From Escherichia phage vB_ESM-pEJ01, in sequence record OP114734.1: 64,000 nt of DNA; one strand, given 5' to 3'. A model generated the notes under the pieces. That model was not told where the DNA came from. It worked only from the letters and a program-made list of their open reading frames with translations, and ran no database searches. Made by a program: the position numbers and the translations under genes. This document shows, in pieces, positions 26,973 to 62,557 of the stretch (its first letter is position 1; each line of letters starts with the position of its first letter).

Positions 26973-27006
26973 TCAGTAAATTAGCATAGTTTAAAAGTTA
27001 AATCAA

Positions 27007-27025: not shown

Positions 27026-27045
27026 TCTATTAAGGAATATCAATT

Positions 27046-27540: not shown

Positions 27541-27552
27541 ATATATTATCAC

Positions 27553-27571
27553 GCGGGGAGAAGTTCCCCGC
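27553..27571 (+). repeat. 19-nt hairpin GCGGGGAGAAGTTCCCCGC downstream of gene 19 (copy 2)
   Basis: identical to 27007-27025. Confidence 0.5.
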
Positions 27572-27598
27572 CTAATTTCTCCCAATTCGAGGTGAATA

Positions 27599-49086: not shown

Positions 49087-49092
49087 TAAACG

Positions 49093-49120
49093 AAAGGCGG
49101 GGATAATCCCCGCCTTTTTA
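49093..49120. terminator. bidirectional terminator between gene 54 and the convergent lipoprotein gene
   Basis: hairpin AGGCGGGG-ATAAT-CCCCGCCT flanked by A-run and T-run. Confidence 0.65.
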
Positions 49121-49603
49121 TTTTGCTAAATCATTGCAATATTTTAGTGCCTTAGTTTGAAATTCTGAGCTGTTAAGTTCTTCATAACGGTCATAATCAC
49201 CGTTTAATGCTGCCTTTCTTGCTTCTTGCTCTATCTGCATGTCAGACATGATAATACAGCGATCCCGCGCTTTCATCTTCTCAAGTTGTATAGACTCTTC
49301 TTTCTGCTTGCGCAATTCTTCTTGACGCTTCTTTTCTTCTTGTGCTTTCTCTTCCCGCGCTTCTTTGATTGCCTCCTTGAACATCTGCGTTTGTGGTGCT
49401 AAACCAACTTTAACTCGATCTACGTCTCGACGTTCCATTTTAGAAATAAAGCATGATTCGATCTGATCATCACTTGCATATGCTGCTTTACATTCACGAA
49501 GCAAGAAAACCGGATCTGATTTAGCATTCATCATAGCTTCCATGTTGGCACAACCAGTAAGCATGAATGCAGCCGCAAGACCAATCAGTTTAATCATTTT
49601 CAT
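49118..49603 (-). CDS. putative lipoprotein
   Basis: N-terminal signal peptide with lipobox LTGC (MKMIKLIGLAAAFMLTGC); charged coiled-coil middle region. Confidence 0.6.
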   Translation of the reverse strand: MKMIKLIGLAAAFMLTGCANMEAMMNAKSDPVFLLRECKAAYASDDQIESCFISKMERRDVDRVKVGLAPQTQMFKEAIKEAREEKAQEEKKRQEELRKQKEESIQLEKMKARDRCIIMSDMQIEQEARKAALNGDYDRYEELNSSEFQTKALKYCNDLAK

Positions 49604-50424
49604 TTAGTCACCTCACCGAAAATTGTAAATTGTCTACGATTCTCATCGCCGAAAGATTCTACTACGTCGTTTACCTTGACGCAAGTCCCTCGCGGTAAAA
49701 TTACTTCACATTCGCAAGGGTTCCATGCAATTGACCCAACAACAAAACCTTTATGATCTTTTACGTCAATTACCCATGATACATTACAAGAATGTTGCAT
49801 CTTTCCGGTCATTGATTCATATCGATTCTCACAATAAAGGCTAGTGCTGTTTGATAGCCATCCTCCAAAGATGATCGGTGTCATGCTGGTAGATACAAAG
49901 TTTTTAAAGGTAAACTCCTTATCTTCAATGATACGCTCTATTGTCTGAATGTCAAGATGTTGACCTCGATAAAGAGTACCGTTTAACTTTTCGGTTTTAT
50001 CCATGACACAATCCATCAAATCAACAATCTCTGATATCTCATCGGTCATGTCTTCTTCCCCTAAGAGAGCACCATTTACCCATTCGTATTGTTCAGACAC
50101 ATAATCACAGATTGCATTATATTCTGCTGGGGTTATGTTGTTATGTTTGTAATGTTTGAATACATTATCTCCAAAGTCTTCGGAGTGTACTTCATACATC
50201 ACATTAATGATTTTCTTGACAAATCCATAATCTTGTGTCTCGCGCTCAAGGAAGCGGATAACCTTCACATAATCATCAAAGTTAATCTGATCGCTGATCA
50301 TCTCAGTGATCATGTAACCATTAATCCCCTCAATGTCATATGTTTCGATGTAATTATCCATACGTTCCATCATTGATTCGCGTGATTCTTCTGAAAGACG
50401 AAAATCCTGTAATTTCTTGAACAT
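49600..50424 (-). CDS. Alt-like ADP-ribosyltransferase paralog (short form)
   Basis: R-S-E triad: LYRGQ, FVSTS, CECEVILPRG; aligns with the C-terminal domain of the adjacent 683-aa Alt (YRG, KNYVSTS, IFGGW, ECEILLPRG). Confidence 0.7.
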   Translation of the reverse strand: MFKKLQDFRLSEESRESMMERMDNYIETYDIEGINGYMITEMISDQINFDDYVKVIRFLERETQDYGFVKKIINVMYEVHSEDFGDNVFKHYKHNNITPAEYNAICDYVSEQYEWVNGALLGEEDMTDEISEIVDLMDCVMDKTEKLNGTLYRGQHLDIQTIERIIEDKEFTFKNFVSTSMTPIIFGGWLSNSTSLYCENRYESMTGKMQHSCNVSWVIDVKDHKGFVVGSIAWNPCECEVILPRGTCVKVNDVVESFGDENRRQFTIFGEVTK

Positions 50425-50440
50425 TTTAAACCTCCCATAT

Positions 50441-50476
50441 AACAGAAAACGGGGCTAGTATAAAACTAGTCCCCGT
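50441..50476 (-). terminator. hairpin terminator after alt
   Basis: - strand hairpin ACGGGGACTAGT/ACTAGCCCCGT followed by UUUUCUGUU. Confidence 0.55.
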
Positions 50477-50485
50477 TTGAGTCAA
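50457..50485 (-). promoter_or_regulatory. putative promoter TTGACT-N17-TATACT overlapping the hairpin, upstream of the Alt-like gene
   Basis: same architecture as the PeSL-like units at 52-60 kb. Confidence 0.45.
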
Positions 50486-50502
50486 CCATTATTTCTTAAA
50501 AA

Positions 50503-52554
50503 TTACATTTTAAATTTATCTGGCATTGCGTCTACAGATACCAGATCAGCGATAAGCTGACGTAGAGTTGCCTTATCTGCTTTCTTACGTTCGGTTTTAG
50601 CTTCGCTAATGAAGCTGGAGAAAGACAGGTCAGAAGCAGGTTTAATAACACCTTCACGGATGAATGCATCACCGTCCGCGATCATCTCGCCAGATTCTTG
50701 TAATGCTGCCAGTTCATTTTTGTTCATAATATGTGCCTCAATGTAATAAGTTTCTTGTGAATCAGTCGATGCCGTGGCACTAGTTACCGTATCAAAGGAT
50801 AACACAACACCGCGAGGAAGTAAAATCTCGCATTCTTTGTAAGCAAATGCTTTGTTACCTACTGGCAATACAGGGATGTTTTCCGCGCCAGCAATGGAGA
50901 AAGCAACATTAGCGCCACCTTCACCGCGAGAGCCAGCCATAGAATCAACACCAGCAACGGCACTAGCCACGTTTGCATTCCAGCCGCCAAAAATGTTAGG
51001 TGCAAGGGAAGTGCTCACATAGTTTTTAAAGTAAAACGCTTTTTGCTTACGTGCAGTTTCCCACATTTGCGACCGGAAGTCCATACCACGATACAGAATA
51101 GTACCCGGATCAAGTTTAACGCCATAGTTGGAGAAGGCATTATCCAGTGCATCGCACATCTTGACCAATTCTTCTGGATCTGCGATGCCTTCAAACTCTT
51201 CCAGCTTACGGTCGGTTAGGAAGTTGTTCATATTGATGTATGCTGCATCGGCATATTCGCTCAACACAAAACCTTCCGCGCCTGGCAGATCAAGATCAAT
51301 ATCTGCCATCATTTCACCCATGTTGCTAGCAATTGCTTCAAACATACCGGACGCAACATTACGTAGGGCATCGGTTTTAATCTGGGTGATATGACTACGC
51401 AGCATTTCAGCTTTTACATCTGCTGGCATAGACTGGTCTACTCGATCCATTGCCAGGGCGGTGATCTTGTTTTCGAATACTTCCTCGCTCATGATTTCTT
51501 TTAAGCGTTTGACCGAGGCTGCGATAACTTCCGCAGACAACGGATCATATTGATCCTGAACTTTTACCAGTTCGCTTACTGCGTATTTTGCATCGGCTTC
51601 GCTTTCAAAAATAGTACGCATGAAACCATAGCGAGTGATAATATCACTTGTCCAGTCATTCAGAGAACGGGCGGTTGAACGTTCTAAGGCTTGACGGTCA
51701 ATCAGAGTATTAAACTGTTTCTTAGGTTCGGCTTCGGTGATATCTTCTTCCGGTTTAAGATTAATTTTTTCTGGATGATTCACATAGTCGCTGTTATAGG
51801 TCGCTTGAGTTTTCAGCATTTCTTCTTTAGTCAAACGAGATTTAGCCGCTACGCGTTGTTCCGCTTCCGCGTTTCGTTCTTCTTCTGACACAAGACTAGC
51901 CGCATACGCTTCATCTTTAGTCAGAGATTCACCGGTAGCCTTAGATACCCAGCGATCACCTAAATCACTTTCTACTTTAGTGAACAGGGAATCATCAAGT
52001 TTAATCCCTTTAATCTTATCAATCGCCATACCGCGACGCTTGACAACAACTAAAGCGATCTTTTTGCTGGTCATTACTTCCTGCTGGAATACTTCAAACT
52101 TCGGTGTACGACGCACCAAACGCTCTATAACGCGCTTAACCAGTTCGGTCTTACCTTTCATGCGGGATACGTTAAAACGGAACATAACAGCGTCTAATTG
52201 CGCTTTACGGGCTGTTTCCATAACCACATCAAAAGCACTTGCCATAACTGCAATCGGGTTATCACCTAGACCATTTTTAAGCTGTACAATACGACCGCTT
52301 TTGTTCATTTCGCACAGTACAACATGTGCGGTCTTGTCACCCATACGAATGATTTTAGGTGTTTTGTTGGTGAAGTTACAAAGACGGACAATCACATCTT
52401 TATCGCGTGTCTGTACTGCAAAAAGCTGTTTAGGATTCTGCTTAGGCTTTAAGCACTGTACCGGGGCAATACTACCAAAGTTTTCTTCCTCTTCCGTCAA
52501 CAGCCATTTCTCGAAAGATTCAATCATTAGATCGTCGATTTCTAAGTTAAACAT
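50503..52554 (-). CDS. alt: ADP-ribosyltransferase Alt
   Basis: 683 aa (T4 Alt 682 aa); C-terminal ART domain with ILYRG, YVSTS, ECEILLPRG; position between gene 54 and gene 30. Confidence 0.8.
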   Translation of the reverse strand: MFNLEIDDLMIESFEKWLLTEEEENFGSIAPVQCLKPKQNPKQLFAVQTRDKDVIVRLCNFTNKTPKIIRMGDKTAHVVLCEMNKSGRIVQLKNGLGDNPIAVMASAFDVVMETARKAQLDAVMFRFNVSRMKGKTELVKRVIERLVRRTPKFEVFQQEVMTSKKIALVVVKRRGMAIDKIKGIKLDDSLFTKVESDLGDRWVSKATGESLTKDEAYAASLVSEEERNAEAEQRVAAKSRLTKEEMLKTQATYNSDYVNHPEKINLKPEEDITEAEPKKQFNTLIDRQALERSTARSLNDWTSDIITRYGFMRTIFESEADAKYAVSELVKVQDQYDPLSAEVIAASVKRLKEIMSEEVFENKITALAMDRVDQSMPADVKAEMLRSHITQIKTDALRNVASGMFEAIASNMGEMMADIDLDLPGAEGFVLSEYADAAYINMNNFLTDRKLEEFEGIADPEELVKMCDALDNAFSNYGVKLDPGTILYRGMDFRSQMWETARKQKAFYFKNYVSTSLAPNIFGGWNANVASAVAGVDSMAGSRGEGGANVAFSIAGAENIPVLPVGNKAFAYKECEILLPRGVVLSFDTVTSATASTDSQETYYIEAHIMNKNELAALQESGEMIADGDAFIREGVIKPASDLSFSSFISEAKTERKKADKATLRQLIADLVSVDAMPDKFKM

Positions 52555-52597
52555 TTTATATCCTCTAGTTGATAACCTATAAACCTATATTTATGAA

Positions 52598-52620
52598 AAG
52601 GGGGCTTAACGCCCCCCTTT
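52598..52620 (-). terminator. hairpin terminator upstream of alt
   Basis: - strand hairpin GGGGGGCGUUAAGCCCCC followed by UUUU. Confidence 0.6.
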
Positions 52621-52621
52621 A

Positions 52622-52834
52622 TTATAATGCACCATCGAGCAATTGCTCTAATGTGTATCCTGAATAGTCTTTTTCAATCAGGATATATTTTCCTACTCGT
52701 TTAATACAACCGCGCATTTCAACGTATTCTGCGTAGTTGATGGTGCGAGTTGTTCCATCTTCTAGCAAAGCAGTACCGATTTCGTTAATGCGGTCATAAG
52801 TTACGTCGGTAATGATGATTTCGATGTTAGCCAT
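52622..52834 (-). CDS. hypothetical protein (70 aa)
   Basis: start moved to ATG at 52834 (RBS AAGGAG); N-terminus MANIE identical to the ORF at 54721. Confidence 0.55.
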   Translation of the reverse strand: MANIEIIITDVTYDRINEIGTALLEDGTTRTINYAEYVEMRGCIKRVGKYILIEKDYSGYTLEQLLDGAL

Positions 52835-52870
52835 TTGATACTCCTTAGTAGTTCGTTTCGGTATGTGTGC

Positions 52871-52900
52871 ATTATAGGGGATCACCGATCCCCCTGTCAA
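52871..52900 (-). promoter_or_regulatory. PeSL-like early promoter unit 1 (TTGACA-N18-TATAAT, palindromic spacer)
   Basis: - strand -35 at 52895-52900, -10 at 52871-52876; spacer GGGGATC...GATCCCC. Confidence 0.6.
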
Positions 52901-52907
52901 CAACTTT

Positions 52908-53426
52908 TTAGTTATTTTTTAATTGTTCATCTTGCAATAATGCAATCACATGCTGGCGATGCTCTTCTGATTGAGGCACACCAAAAAAGTTTGTTTTGTA
53001 GAAATACTCTAATCGGTCTTCTCGTGTGCTCTCTTCCATCATGATCGCGGGTAGTCCGAGATTTCGGAAACGTCGCTTTTCTGCTGGCGTAAAATCACTG
53101 TAATACAACATAGAATCATCATTACCAGCAATGCTAAACTCATCCTTCATGAAAGAGAATATTGCGTTTAAACGCTGTTTACCGTCCACGATTTCGATCT
53201 CATAGCGAGAGCCATCATCAATCTTAGCCATTGCGATAGAGCCTACCGGAAAATCATTAATCATGTTTTCGATAAACATACGTTTGTTTTCGGTGTCCCA
53301 TACCAAAGGACGCTGATAATCTGGGTTCATGTTGATATAGCCATCTTCTAACCATGCCTCATAAACAGAGATGACAAAGTTTTTAGTATTGGTATAGTAA
53401 CGGCGTTTAGGCGTTAAACGGTTCAT
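52908..53426 (-). CDS. DUF262 / ParB-like nuclease-domain protein
   Basis: motifs NPDYQRPLVWD and VDGKQRLNA (DGQQR-type); start moved to ATG at 53426 (RBS AGGAG), 1 nt after the upstream stop. Confidence 0.65.
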   Translation of the reverse strand: MNRLTPKRRYYTNTKNFVISVYEAWLEDGYINMNPDYQRPLVWDTENKRMFIENMINDFPVGSIAMAKIDDGSRYEIEIVDGKQRLNAIFSFMKDEFSIAGNDDSMLYYSDFTPAEKRRFRNLGLPAIMMEESTREDRLEYFYKTNFFGVPQSEEHRQHVIALLQDEQLKNN

Positions 53427-53427
53427 G

Positions 53428-53760
53428 TTATAGTCTCCTGAATGGATCATCACGTAAATCAATATCTTTTAAGAACTCATCCCATGAATGGCGGATATTA
53501 TTCTTAATTCTCCAGATAAGCGAAGGGATTGAACGCTCTCCCATCTGGAAGTATGGATCATATGATCCGTATGCCCAATATGCTACTACAATTCCGCAAT
53601 CAGTGCAATAGTATTCTATCTCGCTTGCTGGCGACCAAAGTCCATCAATATGATCACGGATCTTGCTTTCAATGTTATGACTATGGCAATCAGGGCAACG
53701 GATGCAATGACCTTGTTTGTCATAATTTGACGTTAGCGAATACTTAAACAATCTCATCAT
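53428..53760 (-). CDS. Zn-ribbon protein (110 aa)
   Basis: CIRCPDC...H and CTDCG cysteine pairs; start overlaps upstream stop by 4 nt. Confidence 0.6.
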   Translation of the reverse strand: MMRLFKYSLTSNYDKQGHCIRCPDCHSHNIESKIRDHIDGLWSPASEIEYYCTDCGIVVAYWAYGSYDPYFQMGERSIPSLIWRIKNNIRHSWDEFLKDIDLRDDPFRRL

Positions 53761-54473
53761 AGATCCTTATTGGCTTCAAATACTGCCTTTGCGAATCCTC
53801 GCGGGGTAAGTGACCTGATAGTCTTTGTTCTGGTTCCTTTCCCGCCTAGCTTAGAATGCTGTTTACTGTACCCTTTATTAATCGGCAACGGTTTCTTTTC
53901 TGGCATTATAAAGCCTTGTCCGGTCCATAAGCAAGTCTTTTTCGGGTACATATCACGGGCGGCAATATACTCAGGAAACGTAGGATGTATATCATCTTCC
54001 GGCAAATAACCGCCATATTCCCACGGGTGGAACATGTAATCAGGCTTACGCCACATGCTAGAGATAACGCTTACAGGATTCTCTATCATGTAGGGAACTC
54101 CTAGCCATTCACCCAAATAAGCGGTTATTTTAGCTGCCCGTACATCATGAACTTGAATCAACGGTCCTTGTTCTAGTTTCTTTCGTTCAAAGTGCGCAGC
54201 GCCACTAACAGCTAAATTGGTGCACGGTGGGAATGCAAAGATAATATCCGGTTTCCCCCATTCAAGGTCCATTGCTCTTTCCAGCCAGTTCAAATCAATC
54301 CAGGTGTTTACATAGGTAATGTTTTGATGTTCAAATCGGGTATTATATTTTTTGTATGTACCGTGGTCGCCATCGTCAGCATTAAAGCAGATCACCTTAT
54401 GACCTGCTTTAGCCCATTCTAACCCCATTATCCCCGATCCGTCAAAGTTGCAGAATATTAATTTTTGTTTCAC
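53757..54473 (-). CDS. compact DNA C5-cytosine methyltransferase-like protein (no large target-recognition domain)
   Basis: motif I FCNFDGSGIMG, motif IV FAFPPCTNLAVSGA (Pro-Cys), motif VI MIENPVS, motif IX-like IRSLTPRGFAKA in canonical order; GTG start overlapping upstream TGA. Confidence 0.65.
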   Translation of the reverse strand: MKQKLIFCNFDGSGIMGLEWAKAGHKVICFNADDGDHGTYKKYNTRFEHQNITYVNTWIDLNWLERAMDLEWGKPDIIFAFPPCTNLAVSGAAHFERKKLEQGPLIQVHDVRAAKITAYLGEWLGVPYMIENPVSVISSMWRKPDYMFHPWEYGGYLPEDDIHPTFPEYIAARDMYPKKTCLWTGQGFIMPEKKPLPINKGYSKQHSKLGGKGTRTKTIRSLTPRGFAKAVFEANKDL

Positions 54474-54721
54474 GCTGCCCCCATTGGTTTGATAGTAACA
54501 GAATCTAAAAGACCTTTGTTAGCCAGTTCGCGGCAAGTTTTCAGATCCGCAACTTCCCAGCCAGCCGCAATCAGGTTATCGATTAGGCTGTTAGCAACTT
54601 CTTCGCTCATGAAAGAGCACTGTTTGCCGATGGTGTAGCGTACACGCTGTAATTTCAGTTTACGGAAGCCTTTAACGTTCAGGTCTTTAGCGATTTTCTT
54701 TGCGGTTTCGATGTTAGCCAT
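54470..54721 (-). CDS. hypothetical protein (83 aa), first gene of the four-gene operon
   Basis: ATG with RBS GGAGAA directly downstream of PeSL unit 2; N-terminus MANIE. Confidence 0.55.
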   Translation of the reverse strand: MANIETAKKIAKDLNVKGFRKLKLQRVRYTIGKQCSFMSEEVANSLIDNLIAAGWEVADLKTCRELANKGLLDSVTIKPMGAA

Positions 54722-54761
54722 TGTTTGATTCTCCTAAGTGGTATCTCGTCTTGATGGTTGT

Positions 54762-54790
54762 ATTGTAGGGGAGTTATCCTCCCCTGTCAA
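54762..54790 (-). promoter_or_regulatory. PeSL-like early promoter unit 2 (TTGACA-N17-TACAAT)
   Basis: palindromic spacer GGGGAGGATAACTCCCC. Confidence 0.6.
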
Positions 54791-54804
54791 CACTTTTTAT
54801 AAAA

Positions 54805-54972
54805 TTATTTGTTAATTTCTGGTGCGTTGCTAGGATAGTAACCTTCTTTAACTCCGAGATATTTCGCAACCATCCCTACAATCTTCTGTGCTACTACAAT
54901 GTCAAATTTCAGATAATCTTCGCCGTGGGTTTCAATGATATATGCTTCACATGCTGCTTTAGTCTCGAACAT
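54805..54972 (-). CDS. small protein (55 aa), paralog of 58083-58250
   Basis: manually found ORF MFETKAACEAYIIETHGEDYLKFDIVVAQKIVGMVAKYLGVKEGYYPSNAPEINK; RBS GGAGAA. Confidence 0.55.
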   Translation of the reverse strand: MFETKAACEAYIIETHGEDYLKFDIVVAQKIVGMVAKYLGVKEGYYPSNAPEINK

Positions 54973-55005
54973 TTTGATTCTCCTATTTCGTTTCGTTATG
55001 TGTGT

Positions 55006-55034
55006 ATTATAGGGGATCTCCAGATCCCCGTCAA
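55006..55034 (-). promoter_or_regulatory. PeSL-like early promoter unit 3 (TTGACG-N17-TATAAT)
   Basis: palindromic spacer GGGGATCTGGAGATCCC with two GATC. Confidence 0.6.
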
Positions 55035-55048
55035 CAACTTTTTTAAAA

Positions 55049-55330
55049 TTATTCGTGATTAGTTTCGATGTTGTGCATTTTGCACCAGTTCAGCCAATCA
55101 CCCAGATCCTGATAGTTAATGCTTTTATCTGCTGCCATCGTTTTTGTCTTGATACCCATATGTGCGTTATGAGTAAGCATTTTTACAGTGAACTCAATTT
55201 TATCACCTTTAGCTTTAACATCAACCAGTTTGGTCCACTGGCTACCAGCGCCGCGAATGTTCATACCAACGATGTTTCCGATGTATGCTTCTTTGTTTTT
55301 CAGGATTTCGGTTGCTTTGATGAATTTCAT
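55049..55330 (-). CDS. hypothetical protein (93 aa)
   Basis: ATG with RBS GGAGAA downstream of PeSL unit 4. Confidence 0.55.
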   Translation of the reverse strand: MKFIKATEILKNKEAYIGNIVGMNIRGAGSQWTKLVDVKAKGDKIEFTVKMLTHNAHMGIKTKTMAADKSINYQDLGDWLNWCKMHNIETNHE

Positions 55331-55363
55331 TTTTGATTCTCCAGTTCGTTTCGGTATGTGTGT

Positions 55364-55392
55364 ATTATGCTATGTTCTTACTTTGGTGTCAA
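55364..55392 (-). promoter_or_regulatory. PeSL-like early promoter unit 4 (TTGACA-N17-CATAAT)
   Basis: no spacer palindrome. Confidence 0.5.
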
Positions 55393-55400
55393 CAACTTTT

Positions 55401-55670
55401 TTAGATATTTTCAGAAATAAATTTTAAAACTTGACGTAAATGTTTCTCATCTTTGATAGTCGCCGGAAGTTCTTCTTTTACTTCCTGTGCAAGATAGATA
55501 TTTCCGTTCCAAGTGAAAGATCCGTCTTCGTTTACGCGATAGCTGAACATCCACTCGCAATCATTTTCGATTTCATATACACACAGAAGGGTGTAATCGT
55601 TAAAGCTATTGATTTCAAGGTCGAAGCCGTGACGTTTTGCAAAGTTGGTAGTGGTTTTAGTCAGCGCCAT
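55401..55670 (-). CDS. hypothetical protein (89 aa)
   Basis: ATG with RBS GGAGAA downstream of PeSL unit 5. Confidence 0.55.
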   Translation of the reverse strand: MALTKTTTNFAKRHGFDLEINSFNDYTLLCVYEIENDCEWMFSYRVNEDGSFTWNGNIYLAQEVKEELPATIKDEKHLRQVLKFISENI

Positions 55671-55710
55671 TGTTTGATTCTCCTAAGTGGTATCTCGTTT
55701 CGATGGGTGT

Positions 55711-55739
55711 ATTATGCTATAGGCGTGATCTGGTGTCAA
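55711..55739 (-). promoter_or_regulatory. PeSL-like early promoter unit 5 (TTGACA-N17-CATAAT)
   Basis: leader nearly identical to unit 6. Confidence 0.5.
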
Positions 55740-55763
55740 CAACTTTTTTAAAATTTTATGCAA

Positions 55764-55788
55764 TAAAAAGCCGACACTAAGGTCGGCT
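55764..55788 (-). terminator. intrinsic terminator after family member A
   Basis: perfect 7-bp stem AGCCGAC/GTCGGCT, U-run on - strand. Confidence 0.65.
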
Positions 55789-55795
55789 AATAAAA

Positions 55796-56104
55796 TCATT
55801 TAGACAAATAATCATTCAGTGCAATCCGGTCGGCATGTTCCGGCGTTACGTCAATCGCAATCAGTTTAACGCGTGCTTTCTTGCGACCTGGGTTTTCTCG
55901 TAACCAGTGCTCATGACCGTGAACATTTTTATACTGCGATGCTTCTTCGAAGGTACGGATCGGACCTGGGTAATCAGCGTAAAGGATCTCTAGGTCATCG
56001 GTGATGTAAAAATATACGTTGTAATTGCTGTTCTCTAGTTTAAGCAGAGACATTCGGAACATTGGGAGATTTTCGCGGGTAAATTCAAAGATATTATCTT
56101 TCAT
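55796..56104 (-). CDS. H-x-H-W family small protein A (102 aa)
   Basis: start moved to ATG at 56104 (RBS GAGGA); C-terminal HGHEHWLRENPGRKKARVKLIAIDVTPEHADRI. Confidence 0.55.
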   Translation of the reverse strand: MKDNIFEFTRENLPMFRMSLLKLENSNYNVYFYITDDLEILYADYPGPIRTFEEASQYKNVHGHEHWLRENPGRKKARVKLIAIDVTPEHADRIALNDYLSK

Positions 56105-56130
56105 AGTATTATCCTCAATAGTTGGATGAA

Positions 56131-56150
56131 ACGGGGGCTTAACGCCCCGT
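56131..56150 (-). other. hairpin of the GGGGC-TTAAC-GCCCC family
   Basis: same stem-loop as at 52601-52620 and, in the gene-sense orientation, 20002-20018. Confidence 0.4.
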
Positions 56151-56153
56151 ATA

Positions 56154-56441
56154 TTAAAACAGCCCTTCCTGTACACCGTAGTAGAGTTCATCGCTGATAA
56201 TTTCATTAATGCGACGGTGTGCATATTCCTGATTTGCGAAGTTGTCAGCAAGTTCTACTTTAGTTTCGCCGTCATGAGTCCATTTAGTGATAACTTTACC
56301 ATCTGCAAATTTGAAGTTGAACTCTTTAGCTACCGCATCGCGTACCAGACGTGCAAACTTGTTGTTGCGGATTGCATTGTCGGTTTCGTGTGCAGCGTGA
56401 GCGAATTTGTTAACTTTCAGAGTGATAGTAATGTATGCCAT
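56154..56441 (-). CDS. hypothetical protein (95 aa), paralog of 59727-60038
   Basis: RLVRDAVAKEFNFK versus REVRKALAKEFNTK in 59727-60038; RBS GGAGAA. Confidence 0.55.
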   Translation of the reverse strand: MAYITITLKVNKFAHAAHETDNAIRNNKFARLVRDAVAKEFNFKFADGKVITKWTHDGETKVELADNFANQEYAHRRINEIISDELYYGVQEGLF

Positions 56442-56487
56442 AATTTGATTCTCCTAGTTAGAAAGTGTATCTCGTTTCGATGGGTGT

Positions 56488-56516
56488 ATTATGCTATACA
56501 CCCGATCTTATGTCAA
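56488..56516 (-). promoter_or_regulatory. PeSL-like early promoter unit 6 (TTGACA-N17-CATAAT)
   Basis: leader nearly identical to unit 5. Confidence 0.5.
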
Positions 56517-56522
56517 CACTTT

Positions 56523-56801
56523 TTATAAAATAATTTTTTGATATTTTTCTATGATGTTCGTGTAAGTCACATCAACCGCTATCACCGTTGCTTCGAATCC
56601 ACCGTTTAGCCAATGGCTATGGTCATGATCGTGAAAGAAACCAAGACCAGTACGAAGACCTTCTTTATATTCGGCGCGTACATTTAGATCATCATCGATA
56701 AACAGATAAAACCATGAATTTTTACTAGGATTGATGATACAACCTTTCAGATTAGGGAGAATATCACGACTAAGAATAAACTTATCACCTACTTTGAACA
56801 T
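56523..56801 (-). CDS. H-x-H-W family small protein B (92 aa)
   Basis: start moved to ATG at 56801 (RBS GAGGAA); C-terminal HDHDHSHWLNGGFEATVIAVDV. Confidence 0.55.
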   Translation of the reverse strand: MFKVGDKFILSRDILPNLKGCIINPSKNSWFYLFIDDDLNVRAEYKEGLRTGLGFFHDHDHSHWLNGGFEATVIAVDVTYTNIIEKYQKIIL

Positions 56802-56815
56802 AATATTTTCCTCAC

Positions 56816-57124
56816 TTATAAAGTTTGACCGTTGTTTTTCGCGTAATGCTGAATGCGTGCTTGATCTGCTTCCGCTGGTGATAGATTCCATGCAACCACT
56901 ACAACTTCTGACGCATCGTCATCCGTTTCTGATACCCAATGATTGTGATTCATACAGTTATTTGCTATCGAGTGAGCAAATGATTTCATCACTGGAGACG
57001 TATAATCATAGTAACGGATTTTCAGATTTTCATCAACATACAAGTAGATCGTATAAGGTTTATATTCAGTAACCAGTAACAGACAGTTACGCAATTCTGG
57101 GAAAATCTTTTTAGTTAATTTCAT
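56816..57124 (-). CDS. H-x-H-W family small protein C (102 aa)
   Basis: start moved to ATG at 57124 (RBS GAGGA); C-terminal HNHWVSETDDDASEVVVVAWNLSPAEADQ. Confidence 0.55.
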   Translation of the reverse strand: MKLTKKIFPELRNCLLLVTEYKPYTIYLYVDENLKIRYYDYTSPVMKSFAHSIANNCMNHNHWVSETDDDASEVVVVAWNLSPAEADQARIQHYAKNNGQTL

Positions 57125-57125
57125 T

Positions 57126-57344
57126 TTATAATCCTCGGTCTCGGCTATAGTACACGGTACGCCATACAATTTCATGTTTCGTGTCGCTCCAGCACACGAT
57201 CTCATTTACTCTTAAATCTTTGTTATCAACAAAAGATGAACATTGTGACGCTTCTTTCATCATTTTATCTGCTGTTTTCTCATCAAATACAGCACAGATT
57301 TCTTTATACACTCGATAATCTTTGAATTGACTCTGAATACCCAT
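57126..57344 (-). CDS. hypothetical protein (72 aa), tandem paralog of 57304-57561
   Basis: SQFKDYRVYKEI...KMMKEASQC versus SKFKEYKAYQQI...KMMEDASKC. Confidence 0.5.
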   Translation of the reverse strand: MGIQSQFKDYRVYKEICAVFDEKTADKMMKEASQCSSFVDNKDLRVNEIVCWSDTKHEIVWRTVYYSRDRGL

Positions 57345-57561
57345 AATTAACACCATTCCAACCAATTGTTTTTGAGAAAACGTCTATCCACTGTTGAGTG
57401 TAGCATGTTTCTTTCCATGATACAATACGAGTGGAATAATGGTTTTTGTTTCCAGAAAAGGACGGGCATTTTGATGCATCTTCCATCATCTTTTCGGCGA
57501 ACTCTGGTGCGTATACTCGCAGGATCTGTTGATATGCTTTGTATTCTTTAAATTTGCTCAT
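57304..57561 (-). CDS. hypothetical protein (about 85 aa), tandem paralog of 57126-57344
   Basis: overlaps the downstream paralog by about 40 nt; start ambiguous (57561 or 57567). Confidence 0.5.
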   Translation of the reverse strand: MSKFKEYKAYQQILRVYAPEFAEKMMEDASKCPSFSGNKNHYSTRIVSWKETCYTQQWIDVFSKTIGWNGVNYGYSESIQRLSSV

Positions 57562-57826
57562 AATCATTCACTACCTTATCAGCTTCTTTTGTTGTTTTTA
57601 CATCAACTGCGATAACTCGTAAAGGTTCGTCATGGTTCCACCAGTGGTCATGAATATCAGCTTGTGATTTATCACCAAAGGAATCACGAATATCATTTTT
57701 ACATTTATAGCTAATGTGACCTTCATAGTCAACATAAAGGTAATTATCGAAAATCGGCGTTTTTAAGATCATACCGAAAAATCTTTCTTTGTGTGTCTTA
57801 TCCAGCGTTACAGTAATTCGCATCAT
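57548..57826 (-). CDS. H-x-H-W family small protein D (92 aa)
   Basis: RBS AAGAGGAA; C-terminal IHDHWWNHDEPLRVIAVDVKTTKEADKV. Confidence 0.55.
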   Translation of the reverse strand: MMRITVTLDKTHKERFFGMILKTPIFDNYLYVDYEGHISYKCKNDIRDSFGDKSQADIHDHWWNHDEPLRVIAVDVKTTKEADKVVNDYEQI

Positions 57827-57838
57827 AATATATTCCTC

Positions 57839-58018
57839 TTAGAAAGGGATGGTCATTTCTTGAGCTTGTACATTCTCGTTAGGATTAAACTTCATCCAAC
57901 CGATATTGTCTACCAGCATATGTACATTTTTATCATATCCTACGTGAGTAGTCAACACTAAATGTGCTTTACCTTCAACGATGATTTCCATGTACTTCTG
58001 AACTTCGATAGCTTTCAT
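57839..58018 (-). CDS. hypothetical small protein (59 aa)
   Basis: manually found ORF MKAIEVQKYMEII...; RBS GGAGAA downstream of PeSL unit 7. Confidence 0.45.
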   Translation of the reverse strand: MKAIEVQKYMEIIVEGKAHLVLTTHVGYDKNVHMLVDNIGWMKFNPNENVQAQEMTIPF

Positions 58019-58050
58019 TTTGATTCTCCGTTTGTTGTCTTGATGGGAGT

Positions 58051-58079
58051 ATCTTACTACTCCCTTTAATCATTGTCAA
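58051..58079 (-). promoter_or_regulatory. PeSL-like early promoter unit 7 (TTGACA-N17-TAAGAT)
   Basis: palindrome GGGAGTA...TACTCCC overlaps the -10. Confidence 0.5.
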
Positions 58080-58082
58080 CTA

Positions 58083-58250
58083 TTATTTGTTAATTTCCGG
58101 TGCGTTGCTCGGATAGTAACCTTCTTTAACACCTAGATATTTTGCAACCATTCCGGTGATCTTCTGTGCTACTACGATATCGAATTTCAGGTAGTCTTCA
58201 CCGTGGTTTGCTACAATGTATGCTTCGCATTCTGCTTTAGTCTGGAACAT
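58083..58250 (-). CDS. small protein (55 aa), paralog of 54805-54972
   Basis: start moved to ATG at 58250; MFQTKAECEAYIVANHGEDYLKFDIVVAQKITGMVAKYLGVKEGYYPSNAPEINK. Confidence 0.55.
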   Translation of the reverse strand: MFQTKAECEAYIVANHGEDYLKFDIVVAQKITGMVAKYLGVKEGYYPSNAPEINK

Positions 58251-58284
58251 TTTTGATTCTCCTATATCTCGTTGGTATGTGTGC

Positions 58285-58313
58285 ATTATAGGGGATCGGT
58301 GATCCCCTGTCAA
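58285..58313 (-). promoter_or_regulatory. PeSL-like early promoter unit 8 (TTGACA-N17-TATAAT)
   Basis: spacer GGGGATCACCGATCCCC on the - strand, same palindrome arms as unit 1 with inverted centre. Confidence 0.6.
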
Positions 58314-58320
58314 CAACTTT

Positions 58321-58623
58321 TTATTCTTCATCTTTATCTTGATATGCGTACTTCATAAATTTGTCTGCTACTTTGTCCGCGTTTTCAGGTTCTACGTCTG
58401 ACGCTAGGACAACAGCTAGTTCGGTTTTGTCGTTTCCATCATACCAATGATTATGAGTGTCGTTTTCTTCGATATAAAACGAATCGTTTGGAGTTGTGCG
58501 ACAATATACGTCTAAATTCCCATCGATATAAAAGATCCAATCCGAATACAAAATGATTGTTTTAGCAAGATTTTTATTGTCTCTTACAAAAGGTTCCGCG
58601 ACAAATAGCTTAGTTTGTTCCAT
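58321..58623 (-). CDS. H-x-H-W family small protein E (100 aa)
   Basis: start moved to ATG at 58623 (RBS GAGGAA); C-terminal HNHWYDGNDKTELAVVLASDVEPENADKV. Confidence 0.55.
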   Translation of the reverse strand: MEQTKLFVAEPFVRDNKNLAKTIILYSDWIFYIDGNLDVYCRTTPNDSFYIEENDTHNHWYDGNDKTELAVVLASDVEPENADKVADKFMKYAYQDKDEE

Positions 58624-58639
58624 AATATTTTCCTCAAAA

Positions 58640-58828
58640 TTATACAGCTTCGTAAACTTCCCAATGTTCAGCACCAACACGCTTAACGAAAAGGTTTTCT
58701 TTGATGTTATTCATAAACGTCTGGATGGATTTAATGCGGTTGGAAGGTTTCCAGTCTTCGTTGGCATTGCGGTGATACATAATATTACCAGTTCGCTTAT
58801 ATTCAGCAACCATTTTAAGACCACACAT
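58640..58828 (-). CDS. hypothetical protein (62 aa)
   Basis: ATG with RBS GAGGA; preceded by hairpin 58848-58866. Confidence 0.5.
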   Translation of the reverse strand: MCGLKMVAEYKRTGNIMYHRNANEDWKPSNRIKSIQTFMNNIKENLFVKRVGAEHWEVYEAV

Positions 58829-58847
58829 AATATTATCCTCAATTTGT

Positions 58848-58866
58848 GGGAGAGTATTACCCTCCC
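58848..58866 (-). other. hairpin GGGAGAGTATTACCCTCCC (degenerate PeSL-like element)
   Basis: palindrome containing a TAATAC -10-like hexamer; no clear -35. Confidence 0.35.
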
Positions 58867-58884
58867 GATTATTGTTATACTACA

Positions 58885-59187
58885 TTACGCAAAATGGCGT
58901 GTCAATGCTTCTTTTGCTGTTCCGCTAAGATTCTCGATCTCTCCTGGCATAACATCAACCGCCAGAACTTCTACAACATCCTCTGATCCTAACCAGTGAG
59001 TATGACCTTTGTAGAACTTGATATCCCATTTATCGCTATCGCTAGCCCACCACACATCACCGTCTATAAAGTTGATGTAAAGCACACTACGACACATTGA
59101 ATTAGTTACTTTCAATACTGCGCCTTTCATCTCTTCCACGGTATGGTCTTCCATTTTGAAGACCTCGCCTACCTTAACTTTTGCCAT
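58885..59187 (-). CDS. H-x-H-W family small protein F (100 aa)
   Basis: start moved to ATG at 59187 (RBS GGAG); C-terminal GHTHWLGSEDVVEVLAVDVMPGEIEN. Confidence 0.55.
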   Translation of the reverse strand: MAKVKVGEVFKMEDHTVEEMKGAVLKVTNSMCRSVLYINFIDGDVWWASDSDKWDIKFYKGHTHWLGSEDVVEVLAVDVMPGEIENLSGTAKEALTRHFA

Positions 59188-59188
59188 G

Positions 59189-59455
59189 TTACATGCTCCG
59201 AATATGTTTAGATGCATCTTCCAGTTCGTCGATAGTGACACTGTGAGCCAGTAAGTGTACTGGTTGTGGTTCTTCACCTTCCATAGTATTGATCAGATGA
59301 CCGTTTCCTGGGTGGAATGTATCGTTGCCGTTCCAAATAGCATACACATCATCTTCTGTTACGTAGATAATAAGTCCAATCGGTGATTCTGGTAATTGAA
59401 AAATTTTACCCACTGCATCTTTGCGATTGTTTACGATATCTTTTACTGTCTTCAT
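59189..59455 (-). CDS. hypothetical protein G (88 aa), possibly a divergent family member
   Basis: RBS GAGAGG; YVTEDDVYAIW...H.....LLAHSV..DELEDA loosely resembles the family layout. Confidence 0.5.
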   Translation of the reverse strand: MKTVKDIVNNRKDAVGKIFQLPESPIGLIIYVTEDDVYAIWNGNDTFHPGNGHLINTMEGEEPQPVHLLAHSVTIDELEDASKHIRSM

Positions 59456-59474
59456 TTAGTTACCTCTCGTTAAA

Positions 59475-59654
59475 TTACATCACAATCACGCCAGCCGTTG
59501 AAAGTTGATGTTTCAACTGAGCATTTTCTGCTACTGTCAAATCAATGATTTCTTGTGACGCTGCAATCATATAGCCATTGGTGATATTGTTTTGCATCAG
59601 TTCAATGGTCTCTTCGTTGTAGCGGATTTTAGCGATGATTTCGTTGAAGTTCAT
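59475..59654 (-). CDS. hypothetical small protein (59 aa)
   Basis: manually found ORF MNFNEIIAKIRYNEE...; RBS GGAGAA downstream of PeSL unit 10. Confidence 0.45.
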   Translation of the reverse strand: MNFNEIIAKIRYNEETIELMQNNITNGYMIAASQEIIDLTVAENAQLKHQLSTAGVIVM

Positions 59655-59688
59655 AATTGATTCTCCTAGTTCTTTTCGGTATGTGTGT

Positions 59689-59718
59689 AGTATAGGGGAG
59701 TTTAACCTCCCCTGTCAA
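59689..59718 (-). promoter_or_regulatory. PeSL-like early promoter unit 10 (TTGACA-N18-TATACT)
   Basis: palindromic spacer GGGGAGGTTAAACTCCCC. Confidence 0.55.
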
Positions 59719-59726
59719 CAACTTTT

Positions 59727-60038
59727 TTAAAGTTTTTCCATGATAACGGTCATAATTACATCTTCTGCGCGAGCGGTCAGATTATCGGCGTCAGCATGTG
59801 GGCGGTTGGTTGTTACAGAGATAACACCGTTGCGCACTGGTTTAATATTGATATCAAGATGGTCCGCGAAACGTTCGCCAGTTACAGAATGAATTTTGGT
59901 GTTAAATTCTTTTGCCAGTGCCTTGCGAACTTCACGAATCAGGGTAGCGTTTTTCAGTTGGTTCTCCGCGCTCATGGTCTTCTGGGTGTTCATGGTTCCG
60001 TCGAAGTCAATCATTGGCAGCGTTACGATGTATTTCAT
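59727..60038 (-). CDS. hypothetical protein (103 aa), paralog of 56154-56441
   Basis: RBS GGAGAA downstream of PeSL unit 11; shared REVRKALAKEFNTK region. Confidence 0.55.
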   Translation of the reverse strand: MKYIVTLPMIDFDGTMNTQKTMSAENQLKNATLIREVRKALAKEFNTKIHSVTGERFADHLDINIKPVRNGVISVTTNRPHADADNLTARAEDVIMTVIMEKL

Positions 60039-60083
60039 TTTTGATTCTCCGTTTAAGAAAGTATGTTTCGTTTTGATGTGTGT

Positions 60084-60112
60084 AGTATAGGGGATATGTG
60101 ATCCCCTGTCAA
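60084..60112 (-). promoter_or_regulatory. PeSL-like early promoter unit 11 (TTGACA-N17-TATACT)
   Basis: palindromic spacer GGGGATCACATATCCCC. Confidence 0.55.
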
Positions 60113-60125
60113 CAACTTTTTTGAA

Positions 60126-60602
60126 TTATTTTTCTTGATGCTCGCGCTCGTACTTTTCGAAATAAAATTCTACTGGCTGGTCATGAATTGACAGCAAGCC
60201 AAAGCGTTTAGCCGCTCGCAATCCCATATTGCGCTGAATGTACTTCTGGAAGTTCTCGCGTATACACTTACGCCAGTATTCTAAGCCCATACAGCTTTTA
60301 TAAAGATTGCATTGCACACACGCCGGATTCATGTTATCAAGTATATCATGTTCCGGTTTATGCATTCCTACAACCTTATACTTCCACGATCCATCATCAT
60401 TACGGGCAATTCGTCCATTTTCATCATAGACTACCTTTGAGCGTCGCAATACTGGTTTGATGTGGTCTGCGTGCCAGCGATCCCCTAGTTCCTCGCCACA
60501 ATAGGCACAACGTCCACCGTATTTCATTTTCAGGATCTGGCGTTGCTCTTTCTTTGACAATTTTTTAGGTTTAGGGGCTTTCGCCCCTTCATTATCACAC
60601 AT
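60126..60602 (-). CDS. HNH endonuclease-family protein
   Basis: C-x2-C...H-A-D-H...C-x2-C (CAYCGEE, WHADHIKP, CVQCN); ATG overlaps the ligase stop by 8 nt. Confidence 0.7.
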   Translation of the reverse strand: MCDNEGAKAPKPKKLSKKEQRQILKMKYGGRCAYCGEELGDRWHADHIKPVLRRSKVVYDENGRIARNDDGSWKYKVVGMHKPEHDILDNMNPACVQCNLYKSCMGLEYWRKCIRENFQKYIQRNMGLRAAKRFGLLSIHDQPVEFYFEKYEREHQEK

Positions 60603-62091
60603 CGAATACCTCTTTTACTGTATTTGCAGTGGTCTTGTCGTAGCGAATACGTTTGATGATTGGGAGAAATAAAGAGAACTCCGGTTCATCTTCTTTACGT
60701 GATTTGCTGCGGATATACCCGTTGCATGTCATCTCAATGACTTTTCCGATCAGGTTATGCCGATCAGCCCATAACATTTCTCGGTCAAGTTCATTTCGAC
60801 GATCGAACGGAATTACACGTTCAATACCATCATCACATTTTTCGGTTGTAGTGTCGGTTAATCCCGATCCGGTGTTAGTCATCATTCGTCCGCACGCACT
60901 ACGGACAGTAAAACCGCCTACCTTATTAGGATCTTTACTATGCGGATATACATCAACAATTTCAGCGTCGAAGTCAATCACTTCTTTAAATTTAACCTGG
61001 TCTTTACTACGGCGATCTTCAAATACACCATGTAAATTTTTAAGGATAATACCTTCTAAGCCCATGTTTACATAGCGATGATATACTTCGCGAGCTTCAT
61101 CGATATTGTTAACTACAGTGTTTTCGATTATCTGAACACGAGGATCGTTAAGTTCTTCAACAATCTGTTTTAGTTCTTCGAATCGATCTTTATATTGCTT
61201 AGTTGCTTTCTCGTTTCCGTAATACACATCACGGTCGATAACATCCCAGACAGTATAAACAATACATTGGGCTTCTTCTTTTGGAATAGTTCCTTTAAGT
61301 GATTTGTTGAGGATACCATTTCCGGTCTGACGATCTGCAACAACGGATTCTTTCACTGCTTCCGCTACTGGCGTTAATGGCATTTCCTCTTCTTCAAATA
61401 TCCATGACAGAGTACCATCATAAACGCTTTCAACGAAGTTCTGCGCTGGTGTTTGCGAAAGGGTAGGCATATATACCAATTCGCCATCTAGAACAATTCC
61501 ACGGCCTCGTAGACGCTCTAAAACCGCAAACAAATCATCAAGTCCCTGATAGGTATTACCTGAACGGGTATAGATTGCTAATGTTTCCCCGTCAATATCA
61601 GCCATACCACGAGCGCCATCGCTTTTAAGTTGTGCATACGCCGGATACTTGATATTAGCAATAGTCTTATCAGAACATGACGATGCAAGGTGGCACGGCT
61701 GCTGGGGGATCAGTTTCTTCCATACCTTGTTTGCAGTGGTAGCGGAACAACCGCATTCCAGATCACGATTCAGGACCATCATTGCAACTTTAGCATCATC
61801 TTCTGACAAGCAAGTCAGAGTATCGGTAACTAGCTGTAATGCTGCGTTACCAGTTACTTGACGCGTGGCAAGTTTATTTTTAAAGACCTGTAATGCACCG
61901 GATAAAGACAATACAGACGAATAACGCGATGGTTTATCGTATTTCTTTACGCCAAACGTAACCTGTTTGCAATATGCCAGATAAAAGCATTCTTTCAGAG
62001 TTTCATTGCTTGCGGATTCTTTCAGGATCTTTTCTTTCAGCGATGTTTTGTCGGTCGCTGCAAGCTGGTTAATGATATTAAGAATTGACAT
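60595..62091 (-). CDS. 30: ATP-dependent DNA ligase gp30
   Basis: start moved to ATG at 62091 (RBS GAGGTG; track used GTG); adenylation motif KSDGAR, RDLECG and LASS motifs match T4 DNA ligase. Confidence 0.9.
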   Translation of the reverse strand: MSILNIINQLAATDKTSLKEKILKESASNETLKECFYLAYCKQVTFGVKKYDKPSRYSSVLSLSGALQVFKNKLATRQVTGNAALQLVTDTLTCLSEDDAKVAMMVLNRDLECGCSATTANKVWKKLIPQQPCHLASSCSDKTIANIKYPAYAQLKSDGARGMADIDGETLAIYTRSGNTYQGLDDLFAVLERLRGRGIVLDGELVYMPTLSQTPAQNFVESVYDGTLSWIFEEEEMPLTPVAEAVKESVVADRQTGNGILNKSLKGTIPKEEAQCIVYTVWDVIDRDVYYGNEKATKQYKDRFEELKQIVEELNDPRVQIIENTVVNNIDEAREVYHRYVNMGLEGIILKNLHGVFEDRRSKDQVKFKEVIDFDAEIVDVYPHSKDPNKVGGFTVRSACGRMMTNTGSGLTDTTTEKCDDGIERVIPFDRRNELDREMLWADRHNLIGKVIEMTCNGYIRSKSRKEDEPEFSLFLPIIKRIRYDKTTANTVKEVFDV

Positions 62092-62557
62092 TTTCACCTC
62101 GTTTTGTTAAACGTTCACGAATATCATTGAGGATACTACAAAATTCCGATTCAGTCAATATAGTCTTTAACGGATCAGTTCCACCTATGCTATGACGTAA
62201 TTTCTTATTTCCGGTAGCGAGTAATGCTTTACAAAATTCTGGGTTATTCCGTGCCATCGTAACAAATGCCAGATGTACCAGTCTGTAATAATGCTCACTC
62301 ATTCGATGAATCTGGCGACCCTGAAAATATAACAGGTGATTCTCAATCTTTTCAGTTCTTCCGGTTCTTTTTGCTTTGCCACCGTGCATCAAAAAGATTT
62401 CTCTTTGTCTCTGGGGGTTCTTAAATCTTAGCCCCTGTAAAAATCCTTCTGTGCTGTTAATATCGCAACCAAATAAACGGAATGGTCTTTTATTGAAATT
62501 ACTCAATTCACCCGATGGATAAGGTCCACCCGCATAGATATCAATTTCAGAAGTCAT
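62078..62557 (-). CDS. NADAR (YbiA-like, DUF1768) domain protein
   Basis: IYAGGPYPSGELSNF, STEGFLQGLRF and ALLATG parallel the E. coli YbiA motifs (FSNF, TSEHYFQAQKF, ALLLAT); stop overlaps the ligase start. Confidence 0.75.
   Translation of the reverse strand: MTSEIDIYAGGPYPSGELSNFNKRPFRLFGCDINSTEGFLQGLRFKNPQRQREIFLMHGGKAKRTGRTEKIENHLLYFQGRQIHRMSEHYYRLVHLAFVTMARNNPEFCKALLATGNKKLRHSIGGTDPLKTILTESEFCSILNDIRERLTKRGENVNS

Follow-up and report, generated by a model that had tools for sequence, protein, structure and literature searches.

Promoter-early stem-loops (PeSLs) were defined in phages Phi1 and RB49 by Arbiol, Comeau, Kutateladze, Adamia and Krisch (2010, Genome Biol Evol 2:140; PMC2839356) as repeats in which a consensus sigma-70 promoter with an AT-rich upstream tract is combined with a polyG/polyC stem-loop, placed at any of five sites relative to the promoter, and which end in a Shine-Dalgarno (SD) sequence and the start codon of an ORFan. 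About 50 occur per genome, mostly in hyperplastic regions (PMC2839356). Here we describe an array of ten repeated units in a 64,000-nucleotide stretch of Escherichia phage vB_ESM-pEJ01 (OP114734.1; the window). The units are very probably PeSLs of the RB49/Phi1 type, the compact intergenic cassettes of the alt-to-ligase hyperplastic region of Krischvirus. The feature itself is already known, having been characterised experimentally in 2010 at the window-equivalent locus of close relatives.

In the 2010 study, the complete PeSL206/205 gave ~13,000 Miller units of lacZ, and most cloned PeSLs had gained down-mutations in the -35 or -10 hexamer (PMC2839356). The stem-loop of PeSL211/210 lowered lacZ read-through like rrnB T1, in a reporter without phage proteins. 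Inverse PCR recovered circles of ORF191-194, ORF192-193 and ORF210 with crossovers within PeSLs, and the authors proposed an analogy with integrons and a possible GGGG...CCCC-binding protein (PMC2839356). Experiments of the kinds that the initial annotation of the window called for, circle PCR and promoter tests, were thus already in that paper. A later study (Comeau et al. 2014, PMC4122927) applied the PeSL concept to T4/PST and KVP40/nt-1 as well, described the RB49/Phi1 type as TTGACA-N17-TATAAT plus Gn-loop-Cn, and conceded that the units are not the sole points of exchange. The RB49 early-promoter consensus agrees with mapped 5' ends of early transcripts (Nolan et al. 2006, PMC1524935; the mapping by Desplats et al. 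2002 is known to us through PMC1524935).

The RB49 and Phi1 PeSLs are like the window units in genus, locus (ORF185-212), architecture and the ORF192, ORF210 and ORF211 polymorphisms, with differences at the isolate level only. The PeSLs and PmSLs of T4/PST and KVP40/nt-1 (PMC4122927) share the composite of promoter and stem-loop, residence in hyperplastic regions and indels between close relatives, but these other T4-like units have lineage-specific promoter consensuses (TTTACW.., TTGYVH..) and AT-richer stems, and are analogues rather than sequence homologues. Repeats of the T-even internal-protein locus (Repoila 1994, as cited in PMC2839356) are grouped with PeSLs and PmSLs as analogues. 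Integron cassettes likewise form arrays of small single-gene modules with short imperfect palindromes at their bounds and circular intermediates, but they have an IntI integrase, are promoterless and carry attC R and L boxes. In the window every cassette has its own promoter, crossovers vary, attC structure is absent and no recombinase domain was found in the open reading frames (ORFs) scanned in the region (a scan that did not extend to the whole genome), so the locus does not qualify as an integron cassette array. Lambdoid morons (Hendrix et al. 2000, as discussed in PMC2839356) resemble PeSL cassettes as autonomously expressed accessory genes with their own promoter and terminator; unlike PeSL cassettes, they are not flanked by conserved repeats, and their regulatory signals are not considered to act in mobility.

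The window belongs to Krischvirus (RB49/Phi1/GEC-3S type), and 63 phage records, every one of that type, match the region at 94-97% identity. The region is syntenic with Phi1 ORF185-ORF212 and RB49p185-212, the locus where PeSLs were defined and assayed (PMC2839356), which bears out the comparison made in the initial annotation with PeSLs as recombination hot spots of T4-type phages. The array is the hyperplastic stretch bounded by alt (50503-52554) and the DNA ligase gene, gp30 (60595-62097); its ten units in 7.5 kb lie directly upstream of ORFans, and the deposited annotation of GEC-3S has promoters at equivalent positions. The cargo includes a methyltransferase, a GmrSD_N protein and an HNH endonuclease; all other members lack a Pfam family or belong to PHROGs of unknown function. 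At the isolate level, the window genome is without ORF186, ORF189.1, ORF192, ORF195-196.1 and ORF211 and has the 268-bp o208.1. With a single unit as query, we retrieved 58 records, in each of which 6-10 copies were detectable; every record was a Krischvirus-type coliphage, a confinement that fits the lineage-specific PeSL types reported in 2014. Two units lie within 1-3 nt of assayed sequences: u58313 is identical to Phi1 PeSL206/205 except for the -10 (TATAAT vs TATACT) and the base after it, and u60112 differs from RB49 PeSL211/210 at 2 nt, with a single difference, in the loop, when the stem-loop alone is compared.

Architecture of the ten units

By reading of the minus strand over 52700-60300 and a scan for TTGAC-N16-19 followed by a -10 hexamer, we located ten units of ~70-125 bp between 52835 and 60125, all on the minus strand. 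At least 11 had been counted initially; ten lie within the range then given, and each of the ten coordinates named there (52871, 54762, 55006, 55364, 55711, 56488, 58051, 58285, 59689 and 60084) is the last base of a minus-strand -10 hexamer. The units, with their upstream and downstream genes, are as follows.

u52900, 52835-52907, minus: o187/o185; -35 at 52900-52895; spacer hairpin GGGGGATC-GGT-GATCCCC; -10 TATAAT at 52876-52871; SD GGAGTATCAAA; ATG at 52834; a chimeric deletion scar
u54790, 54722-54804, minus: o191/o190; TTGACA; spacer hairpin GGGGAG-GATAA-CTCCCC; TACAAT at 54767-54762; fold -19.4 kcal/mol, z -5.2; cargo o190, o189 (methyltransferase), o188 and o187
u55034, 54973-55048, minus: o193/o191; TTGACG; hairpin GGGGATC-TGGA-GATCCCC, its first G being the last base of the -35; TATAAT at 55011-55006; heads o191; counterpart of Phi1 PeSL193/191 and site of the ORF192 insertion in RB49, G2494 and FL38 (breakpoint 55048-55053)
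u55392, 55331-55400, minus: o194/o193; TTGACA-17-CATAAT; full consensus leader; no stem-loop; heads o193; fold -2.0 kcal/mol, z +0.7
u55739, 55671-55795, minus: o197/o194; TTGACA-17-CATAAT; promoter without hairpin; heads o194; separate canonical terminator upstream at 55788-55769 (AGCCGAC..GTCGGCT plus TTTTT), in the AT-rich tract; where RB49, Brandy and JK32 have ORF195-196.1 inserted
u56516, 56442-56522, minus: o199/o198; TTGACA-17-CATAAT; hairpin GGGTGTAT-AGCATA-ATACACCC over the -10; fold -16.9 kcal/mol, z -4.4; heads o198 and o197
u58079, 58019-58082, minus: o205/o204; TTGACA-17-TAAGAT; hairpin GGGAGTA-GTAAGA-TACTCCC over the -10, z -5.3; heads the six-gene cassette o204-o199
u58313, 58251-58320, minus: o206/o205; TTGACA; GGGGATC-ACC-GATCCCC; TATAAT; heads o205; orthologue of PeSL206/205
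u59718, 59655-59726, minus: o210/o209; TTGACA; GGGGAG-GTTAAA-CTCCCC; TATACT; heads o209, o208.1, o208, o207 and o206; flanks the ORF210 cassette together with u60112
u60112, 60039-60125, minus: o212/o210; TTGACA; GGGGAT-CACAT-ATCCCC; TATACT; long leader; heads o210; orthologue of RB49 PeSL211/210

Each unit runs from the stop codon of the upstream gene in an AT-rich tract through AAAAAGTTG, TTGACA, the spacer, the -10 and the leader to GGAGAATCAAA and ATG; the upstream TAA falls 5-25 nt upstream of AAAAAGTTG in all ten. The -35 is preceded by G (GTTGACA) and reads TTGACG in one unit, and the spacer is 17-18 nt long. The -10 hexamers comprise the variants first listed (TATAAT, TATACT and CATAAT) and, in addition, TACAAT and TAAGAT. 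Nine units have a promoter score of at least 11/12 and one of 10/12, always in the orientation of the downstream gene, and the units match the RB49 early-promoter consensus, with G at -36 and -33. The leader is A/C-rich (ACACACATACCGAAACGA and variants), and GGAGAATCAAA is exact in eight units, with one mismatch in the other two. In array order from u52900, the units head 1, 4, 1, 1, 1, 2, 6, 1, 5 and 1 genes, in agreement with the initial figure of one to six genes per unit.

The components of the units are strongly over-represented. All eight exact occurrences of GGAGAATCAAA (0.07 expected) are within units, and the 15-mer AAAAAGTTGTTGACA, at up to three mismatches, has 18 matches against 4.6 expected, a number reached by none of 100 shuffles. 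Sites that match the promoter at 11/12 or better total 17 in the window (2.67 ± 1.47 in shuffles), and nine of the 17 lie in the 7 kb of the array, all on the minus strand; a generic promoter scan at 9/12 showed no overall enrichment (45 sites vs 35.9 expected), so that only the near-consensus class is enriched. The pattern GGGGA-N5-10-TCCCC occurs nine times (0.06 expected), six of them in unit spacers. Aligned with MAFFT, the ten units have 26 invariant columns and a mean pairwise identity of 63% (range 48-78%); a profile built from them recovers the same ten at E 1e-12 to 5e-21, by construction. On the strength of these statistics, and because the units have a fixed place at gene starts and run in one direction only, we rejected readings of them as chance, low-complexity sequence, or elements like miniature inverted-repeat transposable elements (MITEs) or repetitive extragenic palindromes (REPs).

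A stem-loop is present in nine of the ten units. It lies within the spacer in six (u52900, u54790, u55034, u58313, u59718 and u60112) and over the -10 in u56516 and u58079, and takes the form of the separate upstream terminator in u55739. Palindromic spacers had initially been described as frequent, with GGGGATC and GGGGAGG...CCTCCCC stems; the first type is present as described, while the second reads GGGGAG...CTCCCC, and only the six spacers just named are palindromic. Eight units fold at -11 to -19 kcal/mol (z -1.8 to -5.3), seven of these at z -2.6 or below. An Rfam search at a permissive threshold over 49000-62500 returned only a chance snoRNA-like match (E 0.44) and no known RNA family over leaders or hairpins.

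What the hairpins do can be weighed from their variation. The stems include at least four unrelated sequences, and their register against the promoter varies (in the spacer, over the -10 or upstream); the loops are of 3-6 nt. Between the GGGGATC and GGGGAG stem types a T-A pair is replaced by G-C in a double change that keeps the pairing, and u55034 recruits the last -35 base (TTGACG) as its first stem base at the cost of the -35 consensus. Together these features point to selection for pairing and not for a binding sequence. A covariation count on the spacer hairpins was dropped as uninformative, since TTGACG-type units pair one base out of register and there are essentially two stem types. 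Alternatively, the palindrome could be an operator at which a dimeric phage or host protein, bound to GGGGATC-N-GATCCCC between the -35 and -10, ends early transcription, the RNA hairpin then being incidental. In six promoters it lies exactly in the spacer, where a repressor would occlude RNA polymerase; RB49-type phages are also without the MotA middle mode (PMC1524935), so another early shut-off device is conceivable. The diversity of stems, registers and loops and the pairing maintained through the double change and the -35 recruitment speak against such an operator, as does the published behaviour of the isolated stem-loop as a terminator in a reporter without phage proteins (PMC2839356), and we regard it as highly improbable.

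Under the PeSL reading, the near-consensus sigma-70 promoter and its A-rich, UP-like tract would let host RNA polymerase transcribe one to six small accessory ORFs immediately after infection. The G+C hairpin in or next to the promoter would be transcribed only on read-through from the upstream cassette and would then attenuate or terminate transcription, insulating the cassettes from one another. Both steps have been demonstrated experimentally in the literature for near-identical sequences and are predicted for this phage from its sequence. We further infer that the conserved A/C-rich leader and the GGAGAATCAAA SD region provide uniform, strong translation initiation. Finally, as direct repeats of ~70-100 bp with 48-78% identity and longer identical runs, the units probably serve phage homologous recombination as crossover partners; unit-plus-ORF modules would thereby be deleted, duplicated or inserted, and promoter halves swapped between positions. 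This last step is supported by the genome comparison below together with the published inverse-PCR mini-circles.

Exchange among related genomes

We aligned ten relatives (GEC-3S, Phi1, G2494, FL20, E26, RB49, G2248, FL38, Brandy and JK32) to window positions 50000-62500 and found eight distinct presence/absence polymorphisms.

ORF186: absent in the window and JK32, present in nine relatives; breakpoint in u52900; junction homology 42-78 bp
ORF191: present in the window, absent in Brandy and JK32; breakpoints in u54790 and u55034; junction homology 90 bp
ORF192: absent in the window; breakpoint in the AT-rich tract of u55034; junction homology 4-6 bp
ORF195-196.1: absent in the window; breakpoint in u55739; junction homology 96 bp
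ORF210: present in the window, deleted in FL20, Brandy and JK32; breakpoints in u59718 and u60112; junction homology 106 bp
ORF211: absent in the window, inserted in RB49, E26, G2494 and G2248; breakpoint just upstream of u60112, at 60133-60142; no junction homology detected
ORF189.1: absent in the window; plain gene junction; junction homology 16 bp
o208.1 (268 bp, 59188-59452): present in the window; plain gene junction; junction homology 3 bp

The initial annotation had staked its reading beforehand on the units coinciding with indel boundaries in relatives, and six of the eight indels do break in or at the edge of a unit, four of these six with 42-106 bp of junction homology. The units make up 10.7% of the region, which gives P = 3e-5 for the association against a uniform-position null.

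The junctions themselves carry traces of exchange. Compared base by base, u52900 is a chimera whose 5' part is that of FL20 PeSL187/186 and whose 3' part is that of PeSL186/185 (identical), the two having crossed over in CATACCGAAACGAA, which they share between the -10 and the SD, in the zone mapped for the published ORF192 mini-circles; neither RB49 nor Phi1 has this scar. The ORF186, ORF191 and ORF210 deletions each show chimeric junction units, and the loss of ORF210 that occurs naturally in FL20, Brandy and JK32 agrees with the product predicted from mini-circle excision. The ORF186 deletion probably arose twice, in the window genome and in JK32, because each of the two genomes keeps its local hairpin allele, which in JK32 is that of its close relative Brandy. 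A duplication is also apparent: o191 and o205 (54805-55045 and 58083-58322, minus) encode 55-aa proteins that are 89% identical, and their DNA is homologous (84% over 242 bp) from AAAAAGTTGTTGAC of the upstream unit to the stop codon, as would be left by a duplicated unit-plus-ORF module bounded exactly by units.

Spacer hairpins have been exchanged wholesale at orthologous positions of otherwise near-identical genomes, with four hairpin types upstream of ORF209. Across the 11 genomes, the u55392 spacer and the outlying promoter and stem-loop u50485 (described below) are invariant and u58079 nearly so, while u55739 has point changes and u56516 occurs in two types. The generalisation that units without spacer palindromes are invariant accordingly holds only in part, since u55739 and u56516 vary. 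We also observed that the ACC and GGT loops of the GGGGATC-NNN-GATCCCC hairpins (u52900, u58313 and orthologues) are exact reverse complements, both of them found at four orthologous positions among the 11 genomes. They reflect a single old flip that conversion has since spread, or else flips that recurred. We rejected general loop flipping, as only the ACC/GGT pair was found in both orientations.

These hairpin alleles bear on whether exchange is directed to the hairpins. A dedicated protein (a recombinase, a structure-specific nuclease or the neighbouring HNH endonuclease) could recognise the GGGG...CCCC hairpin or cruciform, making the array an integron-like site-specific system, a possibility that the 2010 authors raised themselves (PMC2839356). 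Whole-hairpin swaps and ACC/GGT loops are seen in units with spacer palindromes, whereas three units without them are invariant or nearly so; one published RB49 crossover was mapped in a loop (PMC2839356), and the HNH endonuclease gene o212 abuts the array. Set against this, the crossovers fall at variable sites, in the leader (ORF186), from the -10 to the leader (ORF191) or in the AT-rich tract (ORF192 and ORF211), and junction homology amounts to 42-106 bp in four of the six events bounded by units, a combination that fits homology-driven exchange and weighs against a site-specific one. Moreover, the larger ORFs of the region yielded no integrase or recombinase domain, RB49 and Phi1 had none identified either (PMC2839356), the other loop types occur in a single orientation, and u55739, whose promoter has no hairpin, still hosts an indel. 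We consider active, structure-targeted recombination quite unlikely. Also unlikely is a role of the spacer palindromes as DNA hairpins that are extruded in vivo and, by way of a structure-specific nuclease or template switching, actively stimulate exchange. If they acted in this way, PeSL arrays would be a recombinase-free, structure-driven cassette system, with the ACC/GGT loops and whole-hairpin allele swaps as its footprint. The question of whether the hairpin actively promotes exchange was raised by the 2010 authors, and the present data only touch on it.

Several observations weigh against the identification of the array as PeSLs that insulate and shuffle cassettes. The spacer hairpins have no U-tract and none was called by a generic intrinsic-terminator scan, so the terminator role rests on one published reporter assay, and u55392 is without any stem-loop. 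When the null is restricted to gene junctions, of which 10 in 24 carry a unit, the association of indels with units falls to P = 0.06. Two indels (ORF189.1 and o208.1) are not bounded by units. Within the six-gene cassette, allelic blocks of ~70% identity at 57100-57400 and 57500-57850 (o201, o202 and o203), seen against Phi1, GEC-3S, FL38 and others, end at ordinary gene boundaries with flanks that are 97-100% identical; a further ~70% block, 58313-58620, begins at u58313. The initial picture of a cassette-assembled island is therefore upheld by the unit-bounded indels but not as the sole mechanism, since two indels and the ~70% blocks within the six-gene cassette are not bounded by units. 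As judged from the genome comparison, the units are important exchange points, but not the only ones.

For large virulent phages, few concrete mechanisms of modular accessory-gene shuffling have experimental support, and PeSLs are one of them. The window is one more genome that fits the published model and does not change what is known; what it adds is a chimeric scar left by deletion, an ORF186 deletion that apparently recurred, a duplicated unit-plus-ORF module and exchange points other than the units.

Other elements and genes of the region

Two copies outside the array had been listed as related at first. The one at 11964 on the plus strand is weakly related (profile E 0.003). The other, at 50485-50457, has a promoter and a stem-loop and fits the PeSL definition; it is invariant in all relatives and has no detectable homology to the array units (profile E 4.5). 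This outlier and further hairpins are listed here.

50425-50502, minus: outlying promoter and stem-loop (u50485) upstream of the second Alt-like gene; TTGACT-17-TATACT; hairpin CGGGGACTAG..CTAGCCCCG plus TTTT over the -10; fold -20.6 kcal/mol, z -4.7
52600-52616, minus: GC hairpin GGGGGCGTTAAGCCCCC that follows o185 and closes the array on its 3' side, ahead of alt; terminator annotated at the equivalent position of GEC-3S, G2494 and G2248
56131-56150, minus: GC hairpin ACGGGGC-GTTAA-GCCCCCGT between o198 and o197, within the u56516 transcription unit; terminator annotated at the equivalent position of GEC-3S and G2494
58905-58846, minus: weaker promoter-like site (10/12), TTGACA-17-TAGTAT, with the -35 within the end of o208, followed by a GGGAG..CTCCC stem-loop and then o207
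27006-27026 and 27552-27572, plus: identical 19-nt hairpins GCGGGGAGAAGTTCCCCGC flanking a ~0.5-kb gene; no sigma-70 promoter

The site at 58905-58846 may be a degenerate eleventh unit of the class with a stem-loop downstream of the -10. The first GCGGGGAGAAGTTCCCCGC hairpin is followed by an SD/start region similar to the unit SD (GGAATATCAATTATG). A second repeated translation-start motif, GAGGAWAATAYTATG, occurs seven times against 0.05 expected and marks internal (non-first) cassette genes; its copies lie at 56102-56116, 56799-56813, 57824-57838, 58621-58635 and 58826-58840 (minus), and also at 2163 and 36997.

The HNH endonuclease gene o212 (60126-60602, minus) is located directly between the array and the DNA ligase gene, and its 3' end is where the ORF211 indel of the relatives is found. 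Under u54790, the four genes of the cassette o187-o190 (52908-54721, minus) code for a protein with GmrSD_N/DUF262 only (Pfam E 3e-20), a small zinc-ribbon protein, a DNA methyltransferase and an ORFan; the methyltransferase, o189, is assigned by PHROG 757 and has no Pfam match. This cassette could be a DNA-modification or anti-restriction module. Six paralogous ORFs of ~92-102 aa (o197, o199, o200, o203, o206 and o208; 55796-59187, minus) are spread over three cassettes and share H-x-H-W ... (V/I)A(V/I)DV, with PHROG matches (9345 and related) that carry no known function. Lastly, o201 and o202 are paralogues of each other, with 39% identity.

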